DNA from: a virus
Taxonomy: Duplodnaviria > Heunggongvirae > Uroviricota > Caudoviricetes
IMG/VR virus record: IMGVR_UViG_2579778873_000001
Location: 9,557 to 73,556 of that record
DNA: 64,000 nt
Reading direction: 5' to 3' (one strand)
The notes under the pieces were generated by a model. The model was not told the DNA's origin. It ran no database searches and was given only the letters and a program-made list of their open reading frames with translations. The stretch's first letter is position 1. Every line of letters starts with the position of its first letter. Shown here piece after piece: positions 3,631 through 26,003 of this stretch. A program made the translations under genes and the position numbers.

Positions 3631-4371
3631 TTACAAACCGCGTTTTTTGCGAATGCGCATTGATTTTTTGCGGTTGATATTCGCTACGGATGTATGCGCT
3701 TTGCGGCGTGCTTTTTTCAGCGCCTGTTTTTGCAATGACGTCATGCGGCGAGGACGCGGGCGTTTACGGATGATGGTAACCTTGCCATCACGAACCACTT
3801 TTTTACGTACCGCTTCCAGCATTGCGCTATCACCACCAGCAACGGTGTAAATGGCAATAGCTGTTTCCATCATGTCGGTGTCGCTTTCGGAAAGAGCGTC
3901 AAAAACACGTTCGGCAGCTGAGTCATCTTCATCGTCGATCATTTCGGTTACATCGTCCTGATCAGCGCCAAGCGCAACAGCTGCATCAGCAAGAGCTGCG
4001 AGAGCATCGTTATAAGCATCGATTTGTTCATCGGTGAAATCGGTGCCTTCATCGATATCAGCCAGGCCAGCCATAGTGATTGCTAATGCATCAAATGAGT
4101 CAGCCTCCGGATCACCATCTTCAACCCAACCAGCAAGCATGGACGCTGCCAGGCTGCGCATATCACCTTGTGCACGGGATTCAACCGCTTCCATCATCGC
4201 GGTTTCAATGTCGTCTTTGGGCTTTGGTTGAGTGTCCTTTCCTTTCTGTCCTGCGCTTTCCAGCATGGCGTTATCATTATTGTCCTGAGTGGATTTATCA
4301 CCGCTTTCAAAGCAGCCAGAACCGAAAATCGCACGCATAAAAGGATCAGCAGTATAATTTTTCATATTCAA
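3631..4371 (-). CDS. Acidic protein with strongly basic C-terminal tail; scaffold or internal virion protein candidate
   Basis: 246 aa; D/E-rich body followed by an Arg/Lys-rich tail (RKRPRPRR...RIRKKRGL); composition typical of scaffolding or DNA-associated internal proteins. Confidence 0.45.
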   Translation of the reverse strand: MNMKNYTADPFMRAIFGSGCFESGDKSTQDNNDNAMLESAGQKGKDTQPKPKDDIETAMMEAVESRAQGDMRSLAASMLAGWVEDGDPEADSFDALAITMAGLADIDEGTDFTDEQIDAYNDALAALADAAVALGADQDDVTEMIDDEDDSAAERVFDALSESDTDMMETAIAIYTVAGGDSAMLEAVRKKVVRDGKVTIIRKRPRPRRMTSLQKQALKKARRKAHTSVANINRKKSMRIRKKRGL

Positions 4372-4408: not shown

Positions 4409-6067
4409 TCAGCGCATCAGAATTGGCTTACCGACGATTCGGCGAGCTGTACCGGTCGGACAAACAGACCAGGCCACTTCCCACAGATCGATGTCCTTTT
4501 GGGCAACCTGAACAACATATGGATCTTCACCCTGGGACTTGTCACGTGGAGTAACCAGCGCACCGGCTGCAACGTAACGGTCAAGCAATTCAGTCATTGC
4601 TTTCATTAGCGCTTCTTTGGTAATGCCATCCGGTTCGTGCTTAATCGCCTGAGCTACTTCATAGAAATCTCTGGCGATGGCGTTCATCAAGGAAGACACA
4701 TGCTGGAATCGCAGATAGTTGTTTTTGCTGTAAGTTGTTAAAGAGTCGTCAATGTAAACGGACCCGTCAGCAGCAACTGAAACTGGATTAATGCGCGCAA
4801 GAACGAACGCTTCACGATCAACTGCACCGATATTTGGAATTCGGGCAATGTTCTGTCGATCAATAATCGCGCGTGATATACCTGCCGGTGCGTAATGCCA
4901 ACCACCAACATCCGGTACCAGCGCCACTCCTTTTGCCTTCGCTACGAATGCGTCGCAGCTAATGCCATAGACGACATTCATTCCAGTGAAAGTATCTCGG
5001 CAGGAGAGCGGGAAGTAGTAACGGCTTGGTTGATGTGAGCCGCCAAAATTATGGCTTTTCGCTTCTGAAATAGCGTTTTCAGGTGTCTGGTTGCCCTTCA
5101 GGTCATAGAACATGTCTACGCGAACATCTTCAGCCAGCTTTTTGATTGCGGCTAAGGCGGATGCGTCATAACAACCCAATGACAGCAATGCGGTGTAATT
5201 AACCTCTGAAGCTTCGAGAACCTTTAATGCTTCCAGATAGTCTGCAGCGCCAATTTCGGACAGATTTCCATCAGTACCACCTTCAAAAGCTACATCCTCA
5301 AAAATGAGTTGAGCAGCGGATGCTTCTGCATTATCTGCCAGTACGGCACCAATGCGAGTGGACTGGCTTTCAAGCAGTGTCGGAATCCATGCTGGTTGGC
5401 CCATGTCGTTAGTGCCTTCTGGATTGAAAGACACCTGGTGGCTTTCCAGCACCTCAATGGACCCATCGGTTTGTTTTTCTTTCAGCGTCAGCGTAAAGAG
5501 TTCGCTTTCTTCATCATCGCGAGTTAGTGATAACGTGCGATTTTGAGATGCATCACCATCTTTGATGAAGAATAATGCCTTCTCTTCACCTTTAATCTGG
5601 GGCGTCTCTTTGGGTGTGAAGGTCACTGATTGAGTCGTTGCAGTTGAAGCAACACCAACGCTTAATGTGACACCTGGATTTACTGTGGTTTCAGTTGGTT
5701 CAACGGAAAGTTCTTTACTCGCCTTTGCCGCTTTTACTTTGCCCACAACGGAAACAGAAATACCCGGCACCTTCATGTCTTTAGCGCAAACTCGAACGAC
5801 ATATCCAGAGCCGCCTTTTACTGCACGCTCCACGTGGCGATATGGTTCAAAAGCCGCGCCCAGGCGAGGGTGAATCGGTGAACCTAATACGCTTTGATAA
5901 GTCGTATCGTCAACTTTCAGTACCTTACCCGGTGCGCCACGACGCGATATTACAAGCCCAGCAAAGACGGATGCGCCACCGCTGGTATTGGTGAGGTTAG
6001 CGTCAGCATTTACTGACATTACAGCAACGCCAGCTGCCTGCCCTACCGAAAAACTAATCTTATTCAT
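4409..6067 (-). CDS. Major virion structural protein (tail sheath candidate)
   Basis: 552-aa ORF in the late operon; size and position next to the head gene as in P1 genes 22/23; assignment by size and synteny only. Confidence 0.45.
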   Translation of the reverse strand: MNKISFSVGQAAGVAVMSVNADANLTNTSGGASVFAGLVISRRGAPGKVLKVDDTTYQSVLGSPIHPRLGAAFEPYRHVERAVKGGSGYVVRVCAKDMKVPGISVSVVGKVKAAKASKELSVEPTETTVNPGVTLSVGVASTATTQSVTFTPKETPQIKGEEKALFFIKDGDASQNRTLSLTRDDEESELFTLTLKEKQTDGSIEVLESHQVSFNPEGTNDMGQPAWIPTLLESQSTRIGAVLADNAEASAAQLIFEDVAFEGGTDGNLSEIGAADYLEALKVLEASEVNYTALLSLGCYDASALAAIKKLAEDVRVDMFYDLKGNQTPENAISEAKSHNFGGSHQPSRYYFPLSCRDTFTGMNVVYGISCDAFVAKAKGVALVPDVGGWHYAPAGISRAIIDRQNIARIPNIGAVDREAFVLARINPVSVAADGSVYIDDSLTTYSKNNYLRFQHVSSLMNAIARDFYEVAQAIKHEPDGITKEALMKAMTELLDRYVAAGALVTPRDKSQGEDPYVVQVAQKDIDLWEVAWSVCPTGTARRIVGKPILMR

Positions 6068-6134
6068 GCTGGTTCTTATCCTCTAAAGCGAGAGAACGAG
6101 GCAAGGCTACCCACGGTTAATGGGCAGCCTCTGA

Positions 6135-6413
6135 TCAGGATTCGCTTACCGTGAAGTTATCGCCTACGGTTACTTCTTTCGTAGTTGGTTCAACACTGAC
6201 GGCGCTTACGCTTTTATGTGCCTCCCTAACAGTGACTGTGCACTGTGCGGTTTTATTGCCGTCATTTGTTTTGATTGTCAGCACTGCCTGCCCGGCCTTA
6301 AGAGCGGTACATGTAGTGCCATCAACCTGGACAATATCAGGGTGATCTGACTCAACAGTGAAAGATTTGTCTGTTGCGTCAGATGGCGTGATAGTTACTT
6401 GAATGTTTGCCAT
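6135..6413 (-). CDS. Ig-like (Big_2-type) domain protein, virion decoration candidate
   Basis: 92 aa, T/V-rich beta-sandwich-like sequence typical of phage Ig-like domains. Confidence 0.5.
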   Translation of the reverse strand: MANIQVTITPSDATDKSFTVESDHPDIVQVDGTTCTALKAGQAVLTIKTNDGNKTAQCTVTVREAHKSVSAVSVEPTTKEVTVGDNFTVSES

Positions 6414-6560
6414 TTTTTTCTCCTGAACGCCCCTTAATCAGGGGCGTGTTTTTGCCTTACTTCTGCTTTGTTTTTTTCTGTGCCTTTGAAGTGTTCGCGG
6501 CGATAGTTTCACCTTCATCTACGTCAAGTGATGTTGGTGATACCGACACGTTCGCCACCA

Positions 6561-8258
6561 TCACTTTTTTTCGTTAACCTTGCCTGTCAGCATGTCGATA
6601 GCACCTTCTTTGGCACGAGTCAGACGCAGGCGGGTGAAGTAGTTTTCACCGTTGCGAGGATGTACTTCGTTGATGGCACTGCCCCAGAGAGTGGTACGGT
6701 TAACGAGAGACGGATTGGTTTCGTGAACGTAAGGGATTGCTGGGACTGCATCACCAGCAATCAGCCCGGCTTTACCGATGCCTTCGCCACGCCCATAGAA
6801 GAAGATGTCATCCAGCCCGAAGTCATATCCCTGTGCCTTGAATTGCTCACAGACAGGTTGCGGCACTTCGTAAATACGAATCGTGCCAAACAGGGTGCCG
6901 ATGTACTGTACATACGGCGACTGAACGTAACCTGGTGCGATCTGGAAGTGCTGTGGAGGCAAAGAGCGCAGGAAGTTCGCGGCGTCACTACCAGCAAAGC
7001 CGCCACGAATACCCGTTGTCAGGGTACGATTTGCCATTTCTTGAGACAGAGCGTTTACTACGTGACGCAGGAGGCCGACCCAGGACTCATAGTTTTGAGC
7101 TTCCGGCAGAGCCACATCAAATTCACGACCATAAACGGTATGGAATACCAGGGTGCGCAGACGCATGATGTCGGTTTCATGGGAGATCCAGTTACGCATC
7201 GCGGAGAACTGAAGTGCCGCTAATTCAAGGCCGTGCTCACGGCTTAAATCGGATGCGGACATTACCGTGTGTTCGGAAGCAAGTACGTACTGGGACGGAC
7301 GAACTTCGTACTTACGCATAGCCTGGTTGATCACCGGAATCAGGCTTGGATTGCGCTCGATGTTAATTTCGACCTGAACAGCAATTTCAGTACCTTCTGG
7401 CGGAGCCTGGGTAAATGTAATGTCAATGACACCAGTGTCATAAGCAACTTTGGCAGTCGCTGAGAAAGCATTACCTTTGCTGTCTTTAGCATTGAAATAA
7501 AGGTTGCCATCGCCGTCGTCAACTTTGGACGGTTTGCGGTTGATCAGCAGTTTGTTATAACCAGCGCGAAGCGGGCAGGATTGCCCCTCAAAATTTTGGA
7601 TGTTGAACTGGAAGGTTTTGGTGCTGCCATCCCCTTTAGTGGTAAGGGTATACAGGCGCTTCATTTGAGAATAAACACCAGCTGACTGCATATTCAGTTC
7701 GTCACCTTGGTTGAAGGTGCCGAATTTTGTGCCTGCTACGTTGACCAGTTCATAAATATTTGACTCGTCACGATCACAAGGAACAAAAGTACAGGCATCA
7801 CTGGTAGCAGCGCCCAGAGAAGCAGGCAGAATTAGAGCAGCATATTGAGCAACTTTCATTACGCCGTCAGAGCTACGCATTGATTGCGCGACAGACTCAA
7901 ACATTGCCTTACCCGTGCCTTCATGGGTATCACTGGCACATTCAGTCATCAGGCGTTCAAGAGCCATGTGTGCGTTCGCCAGGATGTCACTTGCCGGGTA
8001 ATGACCATGTTGACGTTTATACTCATGCAGAGACATAGCCCACCCACCAGTGATCTGACGAGCGACCTCTGGATTTACGCCTTCAAACATAGGCACTTTC
8101 TGGATTGCTTTATCCAGGTTTTCCATCATTACTGCCTGGTCAGCAATCATGTTGCCTGCTGCATCGGTGGTCGGATCGACGGTCATAGCCATGACGCTTG
8201 CCGCCCGATTCATAATCTCGCGCTCGCGATCACGAGCTGGCTGAATGTTTTTATTCAC
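6561..8258 (-). CDS. Large virion structural protein (major head or portal candidate)
   Basis: 565-aa ORF, first gene of the minus-strand late operon; promoter region carries an operator motif. Confidence 0.5.
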   Translation of the reverse strand: MNKNIQPARDREREIMNRAASVMAMTVDPTTDAAGNMIADQAVMMENLDKAIQKVPMFEGVNPEVARQITGGWAMSLHEYKRQHGHYPASDILANAHMALERLMTECASDTHEGTGKAMFESVAQSMRSSDGVMKVAQYAALILPASLGAATSDACTFVPCDRDESNIYELVNVAGTKFGTFNQGDELNMQSAGVYSQMKRLYTLTTKGDGSTKTFQFNIQNFEGQSCPLRAGYNKLLINRKPSKVDDGDGNLYFNAKDSKGNAFSATAKVAYDTGVIDITFTQAPPEGTEIAVQVEINIERNPSLIPVINQAMRKYEVRPSQYVLASEHTVMSASDLSREHGLELAALQFSAMRNWISHETDIMRLRTLVFHTVYGREFDVALPEAQNYESWVGLLRHVVNALSQEMANRTLTTGIRGGFAGSDAANFLRSLPPQHFQIAPGYVQSPYVQYIGTLFGTIRIYEVPQPVCEQFKAQGYDFGLDDIFFYGRGEGIGKAGLIAGDAVPAIPYVHETNPSLVNRTTLWGSAINEVHPRNGENYFTRLRLTRAKEGAIDMLTGKVNEKK

Positions 8259-9284: not shown

Positions 9285-9583
9285 TCCCCCTTCCCTTCCC
9301 AAATCTCCCTGTTTTTTTGGTTATTCAGTGCGTTTCGTTGGTTGCATTCGTCGATCGTGCTGAATAACTGTTCAGCGTATGTCGGATACTTGTTTAACAG
9401 CACTGGCGTGTCTTCTGGCACTAAACAAGGGGAGTAGTCAATCAGATTTGCCTGCGGCCTGCTGGTGGCTTCTACGGTAATTTTCACTGGCACGCTGGTT
9501 GATGGCTTTTGCCCGTTCCCGCTGCATCCTGATAACGTCATCAGGCACACGTACATCGTTAATCCCAGCACGGCGTAACGCAT
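9272..9583 (-). CDS. o-spanin (Rz1-like outer-membrane lipoprotein)
   Basis: Lipobox LSGC after a hydrophobic signal (internal Met MRYAVLG...); starts inside the i-spanin gene in another frame and extends past it (overlapped architecture); periplasmic Cys residues. Confidence 0.55.
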   Translation of the reverse strand: MRYAVLGLTMYVCLMTLSGCSGNGQKPSTSVPVKITVEATSRPQANLIDYSPCLVPEDTPVLLNKYPTYAEQLFSTIDECNQRNALNNQKNREIWEGKGDQGS

Positions 9584-20688: not shown

Positions 20689-21456
20689 TCACCCCATAGA
20701 TATCGAGGTTTCGGTAATAATACGTTTTGCGTCCAACTCCCATGCTGTGATCACGTCTGCAATCACACTTATCGGCGCTTGTGTGGCATAAATACGCTCT
20801 TCTCCAATTGGTGCTGAAACATCCGTAAAGCCGACTTCTTTGGCATCCTGTATCGAGCAAATCAGCGGGACCGGGACACGAACAAGGTGAGTGGTTGCTT
20901 CAAATTGTGTACCTGTCATCAGGCGAAGCCGTGCGCCCAGCGAATTACACATCAGACTCATGGTCGCTTTATCAGTTGCCATTAACGTAACGTCATACGT
21001 CAGAATGGCCTGGGTGTATTCCAGTTCTGCTAAAGGCATTCCGGTATCTGGTTCGCAAAAACTGGCTACTTTTTTGCGGTCAATCTGCTGATCATCGTTG
21101 ATATAATTGATATCCATAGTGCGTGAGATATTGACCAGGGGGAGAGCATCCCGGTTAATGTTCTGGTTTTCAGGTTTTCTCCCTTGCCCGGCATTTGCGC
21201 GACGAACTGCTTTAAGAAACTCGATCGCATTGTCGAAACGGGCCACATAGACACGCTCTGCTGGTGGACGATTCAGGAATGACGCAAAGCGTTTTTCTTC
21301 CGGCGCGGGGGCCACCAGTAAGATATCAGAAAAAATGTTGCTGATTAGCGTCGCAAACGCGTTATCCACGTTTTCAAAGCCCGTGGTCTGGAATTTTCCT
21401 GTGCGTGAGGTTTGCCATTCACCTGTTCGCGCCAGGAGGGTTTTATTTGAAGTCAT
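20689..21456 (-). CDS. Phage protein, unassigned
   Basis: 255-aa ORF in the same operon. Confidence 0.45.
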   Translation of the reverse strand: MTSNKTLLARTGEWQTSRTGKFQTTGFENVDNAFATLISNIFSDILLVAPAPEEKRFASFLNRPPAERVYVARFDNAIEFLKAVRRANAGQGRKPENQNINRDALPLVNISRTMDINYINDDQQIDRKKVASFCEPDTGMPLAELEYTQAILTYDVTLMATDKATMSLMCNSLGARLRLMTGTQFEATTHLVRVPVPLICSIQDAKEVGFTDVSAPIGEERIYATQAPISVIADVITAWELDAKRIITETSISMG

Positions 21457-22256
21457 TCGATCACTCCGTTTTGAGTCGTATCAAAATTCCTGGCAGGTAT
21501 GCAGTAGTAAAGCGAACCAACATGCTGTGTGCCGTAGCTAAAAATACGGTGCACGTACCACCAGCGGCGGGCTACGCCGTTTACCATCTCTTCATTCCAT
21601 TCAAGAATTGAGCCGACGGGGACGTTATTTGCTGCAATACGCAGAATCAGAACATCATCGGTTAAGCCATCCTGCTCACCGTCTGCGTCAATCGCATGGA
21701 AAGAGTCACGTCCGTCAGGGTTATCCAGCACATAAACGATTTCAGGTTCCTGGTAAGTCAGTTCGCGTTGGTTGTTATCCAGTTCAGTGAATGACTCTTC
21801 TCCTGTTTCGTCGCTGACTACCCCATATGTGCCAACATCTGGTCGATATAAGAGAGCCTGAAACGCGTCTGGGCTGGATTCAATAATCAGCATCCAGTCT
21901 GCGCGGATTTGGTCGTTAAAGGCTTTATGCCCGTTATAGCGTGCTTTTAGCTGTGGAGTTGGTTCTCTGCCAGCCAGGGAAGGTGGAAGTATGGCTATAT
22001 CTGATTCGCCAGCATCCGGAGTAAGGCCACCGTTGCTATCAGCAAAATTATCATGGCTATCAGCTTTGGCGGCGGGTTGCTCTTCCAGAATGCTGAATGA
22101 ATCCGAACCGGTATTGCCATGTTCCGGCGCGCCTCCTGCATTCGCTTCAATCGGCGCTGGCGTTTCTCTCTGCGTGCTGTCATGTTCTGACTCCTTACTT
22201 GCCAGGTTTGCATCGTCAGCAAACCATTCGTCAAAACGGCCCATAAGCATCCTCAA
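21453..22256 (-). CDS. Phage protein, acidic, unassigned
   Basis: 267-aa ORF, first gene of this minus-strand operon. Confidence 0.45.
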   Translation of the reverse strand: MRMLMGRFDEWFADDANLASKESEHDSTQRETPAPIEANAGGAPEHGNTGSDSFSILEEQPAAKADSHDNFADSNGGLTPDAGESDIAILPPSLAGREPTPQLKARYNGHKAFNDQIRADWMLIIESSPDAFQALLYRPDVGTYGVVSDETGEESFTELDNNQRELTYQEPEIVYVLDNPDGRDSFHAIDADGEQDGLTDDVLILRIAANNVPVGSILEWNEEMVNGVARRWWYVHRIFSYGTQHVGSLYYCIPARNFDTTQNGVIE

Positions 22257-22406
22257 AGGTCGATCTGTCAGGTATCGAAAGGAAGATTTTCGGGAGATTG
22301 TGATTTTGGATGAAGGAGGGGGAATTCATAAAATGCACTTGCGCACAGTGCAACGGTGCGCTATAGTTATGGCATTCGGTAATCATCACGGAGGATCAAA
22401 TGACTA

Positions 22407-22709
22407 ATGACCAAAAAAATTAACATAAAGGATTTCAGGGATGCGTGGCTTGATGATTTTTTTGAATTTTCAACACCACATAGAAAGATACCTCCTGATA
22501 TTCATATGACATTGTCACGGAAGTTGGACATTATCAATGCCGCAACTACCTGTAAGGATTTAAGATCACCACCAGGTAATCGGTATGAGGAACTGTCAGG
22601 GAAGCTAAATGGCTATTCATCAGTAAGGGTGAATAAGCAATATAGGTTAATTTTTAAGTGGGTTAACGGAAAGGCCGAGGACTTGTATCTCGACCCTCAC
22701 AAATACTAA
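22407..22709 (+). CDS. higB: Type II toxin HigB (RelE/ParE superfamily)
   Basis: 100 aa; C-terminal signature PPGNRYEEL...VRVNKQYRLIFKW..DLYLDPHKY; toxin precedes antitoxin as in higBA. Confidence 0.8.
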   Translation: MTKKINIKDFRDAWLDDFFEFSTPHRKIPPDIHMTLSRKLDIINAATTCKDLRSPPGNRYEELSGKLNGYSSVRVNKQYRLIFKWVNGKAEDLYLDPHKY

Positions 22710-22780
22710 AACAGATACCCGGTTACGGACCGGGTTCTGACCAGAGTCCACTTAATACGCACGCTAGTAAGGGCAAAAAA

Positions 22781-23119
22781 ATGAAACAGGCAACCAGAAA
22801 ACCGACGACCGTAGGTGATATCCTGCTGTACGAATACCTGGAGCCGTTAGAGCTGAAGATCAACGAGTTAGCAGAAATACTTCATGTTCATCGTAACACC
22901 GTAAGTGCTCTTGTTAATAATAATCGTAAGCTAACGATGGATATGGCATATCGCCTGGCAAAAGCATTCGATACTTCTGTAGATTTTTGGATTAATCTTC
23001 AGACCGCAGTAGATCTGTGGGAAGTCGAAAATGATATGCGCGTTCAGGAAGAGTTAAGTCGTATCAATACTGCTGAAAAATTTATTTCTCAGCGGAACAT
23101 GAATAAAAAAGCAGCCTGA
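22781..23119 (+). CDS. higA: Antitoxin HigA (XRE-family HTH)
   Basis: 112 aa with N-terminal helix-turn-helix (LAEILHVHRNTVSALVNNNRKLTMDMAYRLAKAF). Confidence 0.8.
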   Translation: MKQATRKPTTVGDILLYEYLEPLELKINELAEILHVHRNTVSALVNNNRKLTMDMAYRLAKAFDTSVDFWINLQTAVDLWEVENDMRVQEELSRINTAEKFISQRNMNKKAA

Positions 23120-23138
23120 TATAGTAAAACACATACAA

Positions 23139-23169
23139 AAAGCCCACTTAGCAAGTGGGCTTTCCTTTG
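23139..23169 (+). terminator. Rho-independent terminator after higA
   Basis: Hairpin aaagcccact-tagca-agtgggcttt followed by a T-rich run. Confidence 0.5.
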
Positions 23170-23175
23170 TAATTA

Positions 23176-23376
23176 ATGAACATTAAACCTATCCGTACAG
23201 AACAAGATTATGAGGCCGCACTGCGTGCGGTCGAACCGATGTTCGATAACGAACCGGAAATGAATACTCCGGAAGGTGATTTCTTTGAGGTTATGAGTCT
23301 TCTCATTGAGGAGTACGAGAAGAAACATTACCCAATTCAGCCACCATCACCTGTTGAATCTTTTAACTATCCATAA
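23176..23376 (+). pseudogene. Truncated antitoxin remnant: N-terminal domain of a YgjM-type HigA lacking the HTH
   Basis: 66 aa (TEQDYEAALRAVEPMFDNEPE..PEGDFFEVMSLLIEEYEKKHYPIQPPSPVE) matches the N-terminal half of HigA-type antitoxins, then ends where the HTH should start; no Shine-Dalgarno; AT-rich gene follows. Confidence 0.4.
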
Positions 23377-23397
23377 TAAAAGTAATCAGGATAAGCT

Positions 23398-24126
23398 ATG
23401 ATGTCAGAAAAAGTTAAAGATAATCCGTCTATAAATGAAACAGAACTAAAATCATTTTCTGAAATAATAAAAGATAAAATATTTAACAAGGTTTTTGCAT
23501 ATGTTGTCATTTCTTTTCTAATCCTTAACTGGAAGGATATTTTAATTATATTAAAGTCAAAGGACGACATCCTATATACATTATCTATTGTTTTTGTTGG
23601 TGGTAATGTACCGTTCTTTGATAATTGGATTGTACCCCCGTGGGTTTGTCACGTTGTAATCCCATTTATTTATGGAGTATTTGCATCTGTATTAGCTCCT
23701 ATTCTCACACTGACGATATCTAAGCTAACAAGTAAATTATACACTGAAATAAGATATTTAGATGAAGTTGCTGATTATGATAAAAGAATAGAATTGCAAA
23801 GAAAGAAAACAAAGTTAAATCAAGCAACCAATGACGCTAAATATTCAAAACAAATATTAGATGAAAATGAAAATAAACTTAATGACCTAGCTACGAAACA
23901 GCGAGAAATTTGTGGTGCGATAAAACTATTGCATACTGATGTTGGCAGTATTATTGAACTATATAAAAATAAGGGTGTTAGCATTGAATCTCCGCAAGAT
24001 TTATGTGATTTTATAGTCGCTATAAAAAGCACATCATTCTATAATGATGACAAGCATTTTAATAAATTGGTGTCTGATATTTCCAGTTTATTTGATAATA
24101 CTGGAATTGATCTTTCAAAAAAATGA
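23398..24126 (+). CDS. AT-rich acquired gene: membrane protein with three predicted TM helices and a C-terminal coiled-coil; abortive-infection or exclusion effector candidate
   Basis: 242 aa; sharp drop in GC versus flanks (by eye); hydrophobic segments FAYVVISFLILNW, LYTLSIVFVGGNVPFF, VVIPFIYGVFASVLAPILTLTI; AGGA 8 nt upstream. Confidence 0.6.
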   Translation: MMSEKVKDNPSINETELKSFSEIIKDKIFNKVFAYVVISFLILNWKDILIILKSKDDILYTLSIVFVGGNVPFFDNWIVPPWVCHVVIPFIYGVFASVLAPILTLTISKLTSKLYTEIRYLDEVADYDKRIELQRKKTKLNQATNDAKYSKQILDENENKLNDLATKQREICGAIKLLHTDVGSIIELYKNKGVSIESPQDLCDFIVAIKSTSFYNDDKHFNKLVSDISSLFDNTGIDLSKK

Positions 24127-24137
24127 AAGCCCAGCAT

Positions 24138-24171
24138 AAACTACTAGGCTATGTGTGGTTTATGCTTTTTT
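24138..24171 (+). terminator. Terminator-like hairpin after the AT-rich gene
   Basis: gcataaac...gtttatgc hairpin followed by TTTTTT. Confidence 0.45.
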
Positions 24172-25353
24172 CACGTACTCTATAAACATTTTTTCAGCTT
24201 GCTCAGGTGACGTTCCTGCCATGACAAGCGCATCAATGAACGCCTGCTTCTTCAGTGCGAACTGATCGGCAAGGCGTTGCTGAAGCTCCTTGTTTTTCTG
24301 CTTCTCTCGTTGCAAGGCCGCTTCTTTTGCAGCCGCCCGTTTTTTCTGTGCGTCTGACAACTTTCTGGCCCTGGTCAATTGGTCACGTAGCTTGTCGATC
24401 TTGCCGTTGTCCTTTGCCAGTTTTGAACTTAAAGCTGCCTGGCGCTTCTGATAGAGTCTCCATTCGCGTTTGGCGGCTTCAACGTTCGTTTTACTGCTAC
24501 GATTGCGATTAAACTCCTTCTCGTCTTCTTTTGAGAAGTGTTTGGTTGTACGGCGGCGATCGTCACCAAATGCAATTTGCGTTGCAGCCTTTTGTAGCGC
24601 ACGAGCAATACTCATTTGCCAACTGGCGGACTGTAACCGCGTCATTGAGTGGATCACGTGTTTACAGGCGACGCCTTGCAGGTTCGGGTTGCGAACTTTT
24701 GGATAGGCGTATTCTTTTGGCGGTGCCAGGGCAAAGTTACCCGCAGTGGCGATGTAACGATACCAGTATTGATGACGACCACAGTCACAATCGAAAGACA
24801 CTCGCCCGGCGCACAGTGATTTAGTGATTTTGAGAGCTGATTTATCGTCTTCTGCGATGTCATCAACCATCTGATCCCATTCTTCAAAGCGTATCCGGAC
24901 GATATGGTGCTGGTGGACGGATATATCCGATGCTTCTACGCGGATATTAATCACATTGTGGCGAAGAGATACGGGGGTAGCTCTTTTGATACCAGATCCG
25001 TCATCCACGGCGTTATTTGCACGCTTAATATCGATTGCCTGGCTGGATGCCACCAGCTGGGCGTATGTGATGCCAGCCGTCTTGCTGTCATATTTTTCGC
25101 GCGTTTTACTCCGTAGCTTTTCGAAACCTTTCAGGTCGTCTCGCGTGAAGAACGTGCCGCCTTTTTTCTTCCCTAACTTGAGAATATCTTCGGCGGATTT
25201 GTTCCTCAGTCTACCTGGCGTCAGCGTCCGGTGAGCTTGTCGGCGCTTACGGGTTTGTTCTTTCCTGATAATCTCGAATAAACGCGTGAAGTCCTTAGAG
25301 GACAGGCCGTCAGTGATATAGCGCCCGTCCTGTTTTTTCAGGAAATCAGGCAT
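24160..25353 (-). CDS. SWIM-type zinc-finger protein with basic coiled-coil C-terminus
   Basis: 397 aa; CxC...CxH pattern (FDCDCGRHQYWYRY...CKHVIH); Lys/Arg-rich coiled-coil tail. Confidence 0.5.
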   Translation of the reverse strand: MPDFLKKQDGRYITDGLSSKDFTRLFEIIRKEQTRKRRQAHRTLTPGRLRNKSAEDILKLGKKKGGTFFTRDDLKGFEKLRSKTREKYDSKTAGITYAQLVASSQAIDIKRANNAVDDGSGIKRATPVSLRHNVINIRVEASDISVHQHHIVRIRFEEWDQMVDDIAEDDKSALKITKSLCAGRVSFDCDCGRHQYWYRYIATAGNFALAPPKEYAYPKVRNPNLQGVACKHVIHSMTRLQSASWQMSIARALQKAATQIAFGDDRRRTTKHFSKEDEKEFNRNRSSKTNVEAAKREWRLYQKRQAALSSKLAKDNGKIDKLRDQLTRARKLSDAQKKRAAAKEAALQREKQKNKELQQRLADQFALKKQAFIDALVMAGTSPEQAEKMFIEYVKKA

Positions 25354-25675: not shown

Positions 25676-25868
25676 AACAAAGCCTCTCAGTCATAACCTG
25701 GGGGAAACTGTATGCAGGGTGTGAAATGCGAGAAACAGACAGGACACCAGTTCAGGGGGATGTGGTTCATAAATCCCCTCACTGGTGACAAGTGACTTTC
25801 ATTAATCTTTATGCGGGGGCCAGCTTCATTTGCTGGCATTAGATTAAAAATTAAACGGAGTGAATGAC

Positions 25869-26003
25869 ATGGATGTTATCTTCGAATTATTAATGCTAAT
25901 TGATCTGTTTATGAACGCTTCATTGACCACGCAAATACTGGCGTCAATATTTTTGTTACTCTTCTACCTGGTATTGAGGGAGTTAACAAAGCTACTAATG
26001 TGA
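25869..26003 (+). CDS. Unannotated 44-aa hydrophobic peptide (type I toxin-like or small membrane protein)
   Basis: Not in ORF track (under 60 aa). ATG at 25869 with GGAG 8-11 nt upstream; MDVIFELLMLIDLFMNASLTTQILASIFLLLFYLVLRELTKLLM; AT-rich; abuts the stop of the convergent minus-strand gene. Confidence 0.3.
   Translation: MDVIFELLMLIDLFMNASLTTQILASIFLLLFYLVLRELTKLLM

Follow-up and report, generated by a model that had tools for sequence, protein, structure and literature searches.

A membrane-protein gene in an accessory slot of D6-like phage-plasmids: anatomy, allele exchange, and a possible role in phage exclusion

Introduction

Inner-membrane proteins that exclude other phages or abort their infection are a familiar kind of prophage-encoded function, represented by T4 Imm, P22 SieA and SieB, HK97 gp15, and lambda RexB. 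Here we examine a candidate for such a role, a gene for a 242-amino-acid (aa) membrane and coiled-coil protein carried by a D6-like element of the Caudoviricetes (IMG/VR record IMGVR_UViG_2579778873_000001). The stretch analyzed, hereafter the window, comprises 64,000 nucleotides (nt) of that record (positions 9,557 to 73,556), and coordinates refer to the window unless a comparison element is named. Within it, the gene lies beside toxin-antitoxin genes of the higBA type.

Two described systems offer points of reference. PD-lambda-2 (Vassallo et al., 2022; PMC9519451) consists of a HigB-like component A, a HigA–peptidase fusion B, and a third component C, and its defense activity requires the third gene. 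Phage P2, by one account (PMC3091744), has three loci that take up foreign genes, one of which is orf30. D6-like phage-plasmids are widespread in clinical and animal Escherichia coli, Shigella, and Salmonella, and a large survey recovered a complete recognizable defense system in only one of them (bioRxiv 10.1101/2025.09.12.675607).

Results

A resident gene in a fixed slot

The slot, 22300-24200, lies between two leftward tail genes (21453-22256 and 24160-25353), whose counterparts in the reference phage D6 (MF356679) are annotated as similar to P1 genes 7 and 25. By synteny, the 242-aa gene is a resident accessory gene of this slot in D6-like elements, placed between the homologues of genes 7 and 25 and on the opposite strand:

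21453-22256, minus strand: homologue of P1 gene 7, a tail gene forming the left flank of the slot, as annotated in the D6 counterpart
23398-24126, plus strand: open reading frame (ORF) of the 242-aa membrane and coiled-coil protein, a hypervariable cassette, matching phrog_8191
24128-24172, no single strand: hairpin and T-run region at the cassette's right end, common to the converging membrane gene and gene 25
24160-25353, minus strand: homologue of P1 gene 25, a tail gene forming the right flank of the slot, as annotated in the D6 counterpart

The start of the gene 7 homologue is likely the ATG at 22244, which gives the 263 aa annotated in D6. Windowed guanine-plus-cytosine (GC) content is 0.25-0.33 over 23300-24200, compared with approximately 0.48-0.52 in the tail genes; for the 242-aa gene it is 0.288, and for the flanking genes 0.49-0.50. 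Both measures bear out the AT-rich break in composition reported by the first-pass annotation, a description made from the letters alone.

The gene is a regular occupant of the slot. A relative occurs in 156 plasmids of PLSDB and is full-length in about 102 of them (Escherichia, Salmonella, Shigella, Enterobacter); since some 105 PLSDB plasmids carry gene 25 at an identity of at least 90%, the gene is near-universal in D6-like elements. As for the suggestion that it might be a conserved core gene of D6/P1-like phages with a known role, the near-universal presence stands and the known role does not: none was found. Among isolated phage records (n=50,697), a family member was found in D6 only.

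In the elements compared, which we cite by our own labels, the slot takes three forms. In arrangement (a), a higB of the PF09907 type is followed after 3 nt by a 119-aa higA and then by the membrane gene (L003, L004, L020). In arrangement (b), a PF05015 higB, a 112-aa higA, and a terminator precede the 119-aa higA and the membrane gene (D6, L005/L006, L019). Arrangement (c), that of the window, L002, and L018, resembles (b) with the second higA cut to 66 aa.

The membrane gene had been proposed to be cargo inserted into this antitoxin gene. The truncated antitoxin next to higBA is real; the insertion is rejected, since D6 keeps both genes intact, its homologue orf73 directly following the complete orf72. 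The same-slot gene also follows an intact 119-aa HigA in L005 and L019, and in L003, L004, and L020 the cognate PF09907 HigB is retained as well.

Divergent alleles under purifying selection

Allele divergence was compared across five elements: the window, D6, L003, L004, and L005. Among these, the membrane proteins share only 37-58% identity, whereas the proteins of genes 7, 25, and 26 share 97-100% (98-100% for gene 7, 97-99% for gene 25), as do the four intact copies of the 119-aa HigA (97-100%). The membrane-gene alleles all have a GC content of 0.29-0.33. In a multiple alignment the left edge of divergence falls directly after a conserved hairpin, GCGGTCTGGATGACCGC, downstream of the 119-aa higA stop; on the right, divergence runs to where the cassette ends and takes in its terminator, L004 and L005 having different ones. 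Alleles and higBA arrangements combine freely: a 259-aa membrane gene stands behind arrangement (a) in L003 and behind (b) in L019. Whole cassettes are exchanged between related phages, which leaves such divergent alleles between near-identical flanks.

The hairpin after the 119-aa higA stop (GCGGTC-TGGAT-GACCGC) is present in L001 at approximately 4240-4257 and in L003, L004, and L005, and is absent from the window. It may act as a weak terminator or attenuator, or may mark a preferred recombination boundary.

Within one allele, the pattern is of constraint. Between the window and L018, which carry the same allele, 7 nonsynonymous and 9 synonymous changes give a ratio of nonsynonymous to synonymous rates (dN/dS) of 0.20, indicating purifying selection, and the membrane ORF is intact in all five D6-slot alleles and full-length in distant relatives too. 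The low ratio and the intact ORF in every allele mark the gene, at the level of sequence, as functional. Rapid divergence in place was considered as the origin of the alleles and rejected, given the low within-allele ratio and the sharp, cassette-like boundaries that take in the terminator; a dN/dS of 0.20 within an allele points instead to old allelic lineages that have been exchanged, and not to a gene decaying or racing in place.

Divergence is distributed unevenly along the protein. Mean pairwise identity is 60% in the membrane region (residues 24-122), 24% in the coiled coil (123-190), and 33% in the C-terminal domain (191-242). All 34 family members have N44 and P89, and S39 and P101 are nearly invariant among them.

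Gene anatomy and predicted structure

The 242-aa ORF begins 21 nt after the 66-aa ORF, with AGGA located 6 nt before its ATG. At its other end, 24128-24172 is probably a bidirectional terminator of the membrane gene and gene 25. The terminator scan scored this hairpin on the minus strand only (24150-24128); on the plus strand, GCATAAAC...GTTTATGC followed by TTTTTT was read from the sequence. The ribosome-binding site (RBS) and terminator earlier credited to the gene are thus both present, the latter with the scoring limit just given.

Hydropathy supports two robust transmembrane (TM) segments, at residues 32-52 and 82-108. The hydrophobic segment between them (58-74) is marginal, and distant relatives lack it. 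Of the protein first described, with three TM helices and a coiled-coil tail, the size and the coiled coil are retained and the third helix is rejected. An AlphaFold2 model built on a 20-sequence alignment (mean predicted local distance difference test score, or pLDDT, of 74.7) places short helices at residues 13-66, a continuous helix at 81-191 with pLDDT >90 across 121-170, and a small helical bundle at 199-235. The 135-residue C-terminal part has no signal sequence, and the flanks at the N and C termini hold slightly more lysine plus arginine than the loop does; on this basis, both ends of the protein are likely cytoplasmic.

A family without an assigned function

Scans of the 242-aa protein, D6 orf73, and the 34 family members covered Pfam, NCBIfam, PADLOC, and PHROGs. 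The family phrog_8191 is matched end to end, both by the window protein (E 3e-122, residues 1-242 of 242) and by D6 orf73 (E 6e-115). The function of this group and of the more distant phrog_13369 and phrog_4780 is unassigned, so that the full-length match names the family only. For the 242-aa protein, no informative match was found in Pfam, NCBIfam, PADLOC, PDB, BFVD, or the PHROGs of known function. Other scan matches were coiled-coil noise (LmuB, JetC, ZapB), and one family member showed a marginal match to a 2TM effector (E 4e-4). The initial statement that no family could be recognized therefore holds. In their source records, all family members are named "hypothetical protein." Literature searches by protein accession, phrog identifier, P2 orf30, and third genes of higBA loci returned nothing on the family; HigX of Caulobacter, encoded downstream of higBA, is a membrane-bound transcription factor and was set aside as unrelated.

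With respect to PD-lambda-2, the 242-aa protein and 33 relatives gave no PADLOC match to that system, and hence none to component C, which is related to an antitoxin of phage P4. In PD-Lambda-2_B, the match of the 119-aa HigA spans the first 119 positions (E 4e-43); the peptidase domain of that component was not found, the 402-position profile being matched only at 1-65 in the window and 1-119 in D6. The HigB of arrangement (a) matches PD-Lambda-2_A (E 1e-41). The PF05015 HigB of the window has no PADLOC match, and so none to PD-Lambda-2_A. A search for holins and spanins likewise gave no significant match (BFVD holin matches had E >5), and the gene lies outside the lysis cassette, between tail genes.

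Relatives on other mobile elements

An exhaustive profile search of 1.84 billion cluster representatives recovered 44 matches at E <=0.001, eight of them below 1e-30. A word-indexed protein search matched only E. coli proteins, and a profile search of genome contigs with a 9-sequence alignment found only two loci.

Some relatives keep a toxin-antitoxin context. On an Enterobacter D6-like plasmid (L016) and in a degraded D6-like remnant of a Leclercia chromosome (L008), other alleles of the membrane gene follow a HigB/HigA pair of a second subtype, with proteins of 103 and 139 aa that are 97-99% identical between hosts. The same trio occurs on large Klebsiella pneumoniae IncF plasmids among insertion sequence (IS) elements (L015:4153-6707, L017:3153-4513), where IS insertion has usually cut or split the membrane gene; 54 Klebsiella plasmids have partial matches.

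More distant relatives stand alone, without HigBA neighbors. These include P0022, in a lambdoid prophage between replication and late-control genes; P0027, in an integrase island with WYL regulators and GmrSD; P0029, in an island with a methylase, DUF4942, H-NS, and HNH; P0026, beside a 780-aa AAA_13 protein; P0052, cargo of a small serine-recombinase island in E. coli; and P0013, a lone chromosomal gene in Enterobacter. A further member of this group, P0024, is only about 24% identical to the window protein; it occupies the orf30 locus of a P2-like prophage, between genes V and S and on the opposite strand.

In the orf30 slot of the P2-like prophage L021, the family member (6001-6651) is accompanied by a second, convergent gene at 6833-7576 on the minus strand. 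Its 247-aa product has Cys-rich HNH-like motifs (CGSDNEITKEHVLP, CKTCNSD) and no Pfam match on record; this neighbor could be a partner or a separate accessory gene.

The antitoxin remnant and the intact higBA pair

Between the gene 7 homologue and the membrane gene, the window holds the following features:

22330-22406, plus strand: putative promoter/operator region of higBA, with the palindrome TGCACTTGCGCACAGTGCA at 22334-22352 and a TATAGT hexamer resembling a -10 element
22407-22709, plus strand: higB, intact RelE-like toxin of 100 aa (PF05015, HigB-like_toxin)
22781-23119, plus strand: higA, intact Xre helix-turn-helix (HTH) antitoxin of 112 aa, partner of higB (PF01381 HTH_3, E 8e-11)
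23139-23163, plus strand: hairpin resembling an intrinsic terminator and closing the higBA unit (stem of 11-13 base pairs, five of them GC)
23176-23376, plus strand: 66-aa remnant of an orphan YgjM-type higA, with residues 1-54 of the N-terminal domain and 12 diverged residues, without the HTH
23338-23397, plus strand: left recombination junction of the cassette, marked by the drop in identity to D6 and containing the RBS AGGA at 23388-23391

The description of an intact higB-higA pair with its terminator is confirmed. The higB product covers 91/91 positions of PF05015 (E 4.4e-35), so that the RelE-fold toxin domain is present, and the 112-aa higA, which carries its HTH_3 domain and is labeled a HigA family antitoxin in D6 and in plasmids, starts 71 nt past the higB stop, in the reversed, toxin-first order of hig loci. 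The hairpin at 23139-23163 scores on the minus strand as well. The palindrome TGCACTTGCGCACAGTGCA, which looks perfect and was flagged in the hairpin scan, overlaps the higBA promoter region and is probably the HigA operator; in alignment, elements with the PF09907 higB have an unrelated promoter and a different palindrome, GTCCCATATTGGGAC, at the equivalent place.

The 66-aa ORF matches positions 1-65 of PADLOC PD-Lambda-2_B (E 2.5e-16), phrog_1373 (E 8e-19), and also phrog_10398; it has no Pfam match, and the C-terminal Xre HTH domain was not found in it. Its full-length counterpart at the same place is the 119-aa D6 orf72, which has an HTH_3 domain and aligns to residues 21-132 of E. coli K-12 HigA/YgjM (PDB 5IFG, 5YCL; E 8e-8). 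The HTH of the 119-aa HigA begins at about residue 57-60, where the window ORF ends, so that the orf72 and 5IFG alignments agree with the first-pass annotation in assigning to the ORF only the N-terminal domain of HigA. The window and D6 are nucleotide-identical from higB through codon 54 of orf72 (to approximately 23337) and about 70% identical beyond; relative to D6, some 200 base pairs, comprising the HTH half of higA and the conserved hairpin, are absent from the window. The cognate YgjN-type HigB (PF09907) was not found directly upstream of the 66-aa ORF, where the toxin is instead of the PF05015 type with its own antitoxin and terminator.

The truncated form is common. Only 55% of orf72 is covered in about 90 PLSDB plasmids, while 36 carry orf72 at an identity of at least 95%, and the full window-type stretch, with higA cut, occurs in 56/5426 complete E. 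coli genomes. A distant DNA search matched 151 places on the chromosomes of complete E. coli genomes (e.g., NC_013353.1:2380753-2380938). Among the matches listed, many of them in O26, O103, and related strains, each is confined to the N-terminal half of the gene for the 119-aa HigA, with an identity of about 80%; antitoxins of this type are therefore common beyond the D6-like elements.

The difference between arrangements (a) and (b) begins approximately 70-95 nt upstream of the gene 7 start, takes in the promoter/operator, and ends where the 119-aa higA starts. In the simplest succession, (a) would be the oldest form, followed by (b) and then (c). On this order, the PF05015 higBA unit with its terminator would be the newcomer, having replaced the original promoter and the PF09907 higB in the D6 lineage and thereby orphaned the 119-aa higA. 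In the window lineage, the swap-in of a divergent membrane-gene allele would then have cut the HTH half off the already orphaned higA: the left allele junction of the window lies inside higA, and the HTH is gone as a result. Read in this way, the locus offers a worked example of toxin-antitoxin genes being displaced, orphaned, and eroded beside a swapping cassette.

Neighboring sites

Some D6-like plasmids carry an extra RelE/ParE-HigA pair between gene 26 and mat (L018:6468-7039 and L019:5394-5965), which implies at least two slots accepting toxin-antitoxin modules in this neighborhood. The equivalent site in the window, at about 25676-26000, has no RelE/ParE-HigA pair. A small ORF between gene 26 and mat (25860-26003, plus strand) encodes a very hydrophobic peptide of 44-47 aa, MDVIFELLMLIDLFMNASLTTQILASIFLLLFYLVLRELTKLLM; an ORF of the same size occupies that site in D6 (orf77), and a 44-aa gene is also called in L003, L004, and L005. 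It could encode a small membrane peptide or be a type I toxin-like gene.

Discussion

The reading we prefer, and consider about evenly poised between true and false, is that the membrane gene shields the lysogen from other phages, through either abortive infection or superinfection exclusion. The family is confined to mobile elements and accessory slots, and the relatives located in horizontally acquired prophage slots and islands make a defense or exclusion role reasonable. In addition, near-universal presence combined with alleles that differ by 40-60% while the elements are otherwise identical is the sort of mark that conflict between phages leaves behind. The product would be an inner-membrane protein with a conserved two-TM hairpin followed by a variable cytoplasmic coiled coil and a helical C-terminal domain. 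In abortive infection, the hairpin could work as an effector or form a barrier at the inner membrane, with recognition set by the variable cytoplasmic part; superinfection exclusion would be the alternative mode. The gene is independent of toxin-antitoxin partners, its cognate HigB being absent in D6 and the window and HigA often truncated.

Several observations weigh against this reading. No sigma-70-like site of at least 9/12 was found on the plus strand between the higA terminator and the 242-aa start codon, and hence no convincing promoter for expression of the window-type gene in a lysogen. The topology derives from two hydropathy peaks and a weak positive-inside bias, and the order of replacement in the slot from parsimony. 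Finally, a gene that serves the phage's own life cycle could likewise be near-universal in D6-like elements.

The most ambitious form of the proposal is speculative, and we think it unlikely: that the family constitutes a new modular single-protein anti-phage device, with a conserved two-TM effector or entry block and a hypervariable sensor made of the cytoplasmic coiled coil and C-terminal part, whose alleles would be swapped whole among temperate phages (D6-like phage-plasmids, P2-like and lambdoid prophages) so as to alter specificity, and which was originally the third gene of a PD-lambda-2-related higBA operon.

The alternative that best survives the evidence, improbable as we judge it, is that the membrane protein is the third component (X) of a HigB–HigA–X system related to PD-lambda-2, in which HigBA would regulate X or act together with it in defense and of which the window would hold a degraded version with X left partnerless. 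The defense activity of PD-lambda-2 needs a third gene (PMC9519451), and the slot HigB and 119-aa HigA match PD-Lambda-2_A and PD-Lambda-2_B. In L003, L004, and L020 the gap between higA and X is about 60 nt, with a weak hairpin and no room for a separate promoter. The second HigB/HigA subtype (103/139 aa) also precedes X in Enterobacter, Leclercia, and Klebsiella; however, the Klebsiella and Leclercia copies look like captured D6-like fragments, and are thus not independent evidence. Dependence on these partners is also difficult to reconcile with purifying selection on X where HigB is gone and HigA truncated, or with the more distant relatives that lack HigBA neighbors. Moreover, the HigA has no PD-lambda-2B peptidase domain, and X is unlike PD-lambda-2C.

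A service to the phage's own life cycle—in lysis timing, in tail or baseplate assembly at the membrane, or in DNA ejection—would account for the presence of the gene in nearly every D6-like element and for its position among tail and baseplate genes, a position it also has in a P2-like prophage; the combination of TM segments and coiled coil superficially recalls i-spanins and holin regulators. We nonetheless give this explanation a low probability. The gene is encoded on the strand opposite to the tail operon, is foreign in composition, has terminators on both sides, and differs drastically between alleles while the neighboring tail proteins are 97-100% identical. It is outside the lysis cassette, with no significant holin or spanin match, and the isolated phages searched lack it except for D6, whereas non-phage islands and IncF plasmids carry it.

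A similarly low probability attaches to a lysogenic-conversion factor unrelated to phages, acting in envelope physiology, stress tolerance, or host colonization. Such a factor might be expected from an accessory gene with a predicted membrane location, on a phage-plasmid widespread in clinical and animal isolates of E. coli and Salmonella. Yet alleles of such extreme diversity between identical flanks are seen more typically in conflict genes than in genes of host adaptation, and the neighbors of the gene elsewhere are mostly nucleic-acid conflict genes (GmrSD, HNH, methylase, AAA_13).

It is very unlikely, in our view, that the membrane protein is a toxin and the 119-aa HigA-like protein its antitoxin, forming a plasmid-addiction module in which the 66-aa fragment still neutralizes. 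In L003, L004, and L020, the 119-aa protein is paired with a cognate HigB of its own; its identity of 97-100%, set against 37-58% for the membrane protein, argues against a co-evolving binding pair; and the stand-alone relatives have no HigA-like partner. This explanation would nevertheless suit the gene order, antitoxin before toxin being usual, and the frequency of small membrane proteins among toxins. It would also suit the retention of the N-terminal domain of HigA as the 66-aa piece, the part that contacts the toxin in E. coli HigA.

Least probable of all is a decaying or silenced AT-rich passenger without current function: no promoter was detected in the window, IS-disrupted copies occur in Klebsiella plasmids, and low-GC DNA attracts H-NS silencing, as would be expected here, but the ORFs are full-length in all five D6-slot alleles and in distant relatives, dN/dS is 0.20, and polar and proline/glycine TM positions are conserved across the 34 family members.

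Defense of the lysogen against other phages thus remains the reading we favor. If the gene does exclude or abort other phages, the defense catalogue would gain a new single-gene membrane family, the orf30-type slot of P2-like phages would gain a function, and a natural allele series would be at hand for mapping specificity determinants.

Comparison with known systems

The locus can be set beside four described systems. The K-12 HigB-HigA pair (YgjN-YgjM) is the closest reference for the remnant: D6 orf72 covers the N-terminal domain and HTH of HigA, and L003-type elements keep the toxin-first hig order with a PF09907 HigB. The window copy differs in having neither the HTH nor the cognate toxin, and in lying behind the terminator of a PF05015 higBA.

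PD-lambda-2 resembles the putatively ancestral form of the slot (L003, L004, L020), in which a PD-Lambda-2_A-type HigB and a PD-Lambda-2_B-type HigA are followed by a third gene. It differs in that the slot HigA is without a peptidase and the third gene encodes a membrane protein unlike PD-lambda-2C; the window, in addition, is without that type of HigB and has a HigA of only 66 aa.

The acquired loci of P2-like phages are the TO region with tin/old, the Z region with fun, and orf30. At orf30, P0024 lies between tail genes and on the opposite strand, mirroring the D6 slot. The orf30 locus differs from the other two in that no defense function is documented for it in the source consulted (PMC3091744).

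In sequence and in fold, the 242-aa protein resembles no family in Pfam, PADLOC, PDB, BFVD, or the PHROGs of known function, the known exclusion families included. What it shares with Imm, SieA, SieB, gp15, and RexB is of another order: it is a small membrane protein of a temperate phage, an accessory unit of foreign composition that varies between related phages, and dispensable for virion structure as far as synteny shows. Its predicted long cytoplasmic coiled coil and C-terminal domain set it apart from them. The family, then, matches nothing described; as a kind, accessory membrane proteins of prophages that differ from one relative to the next are familiar.

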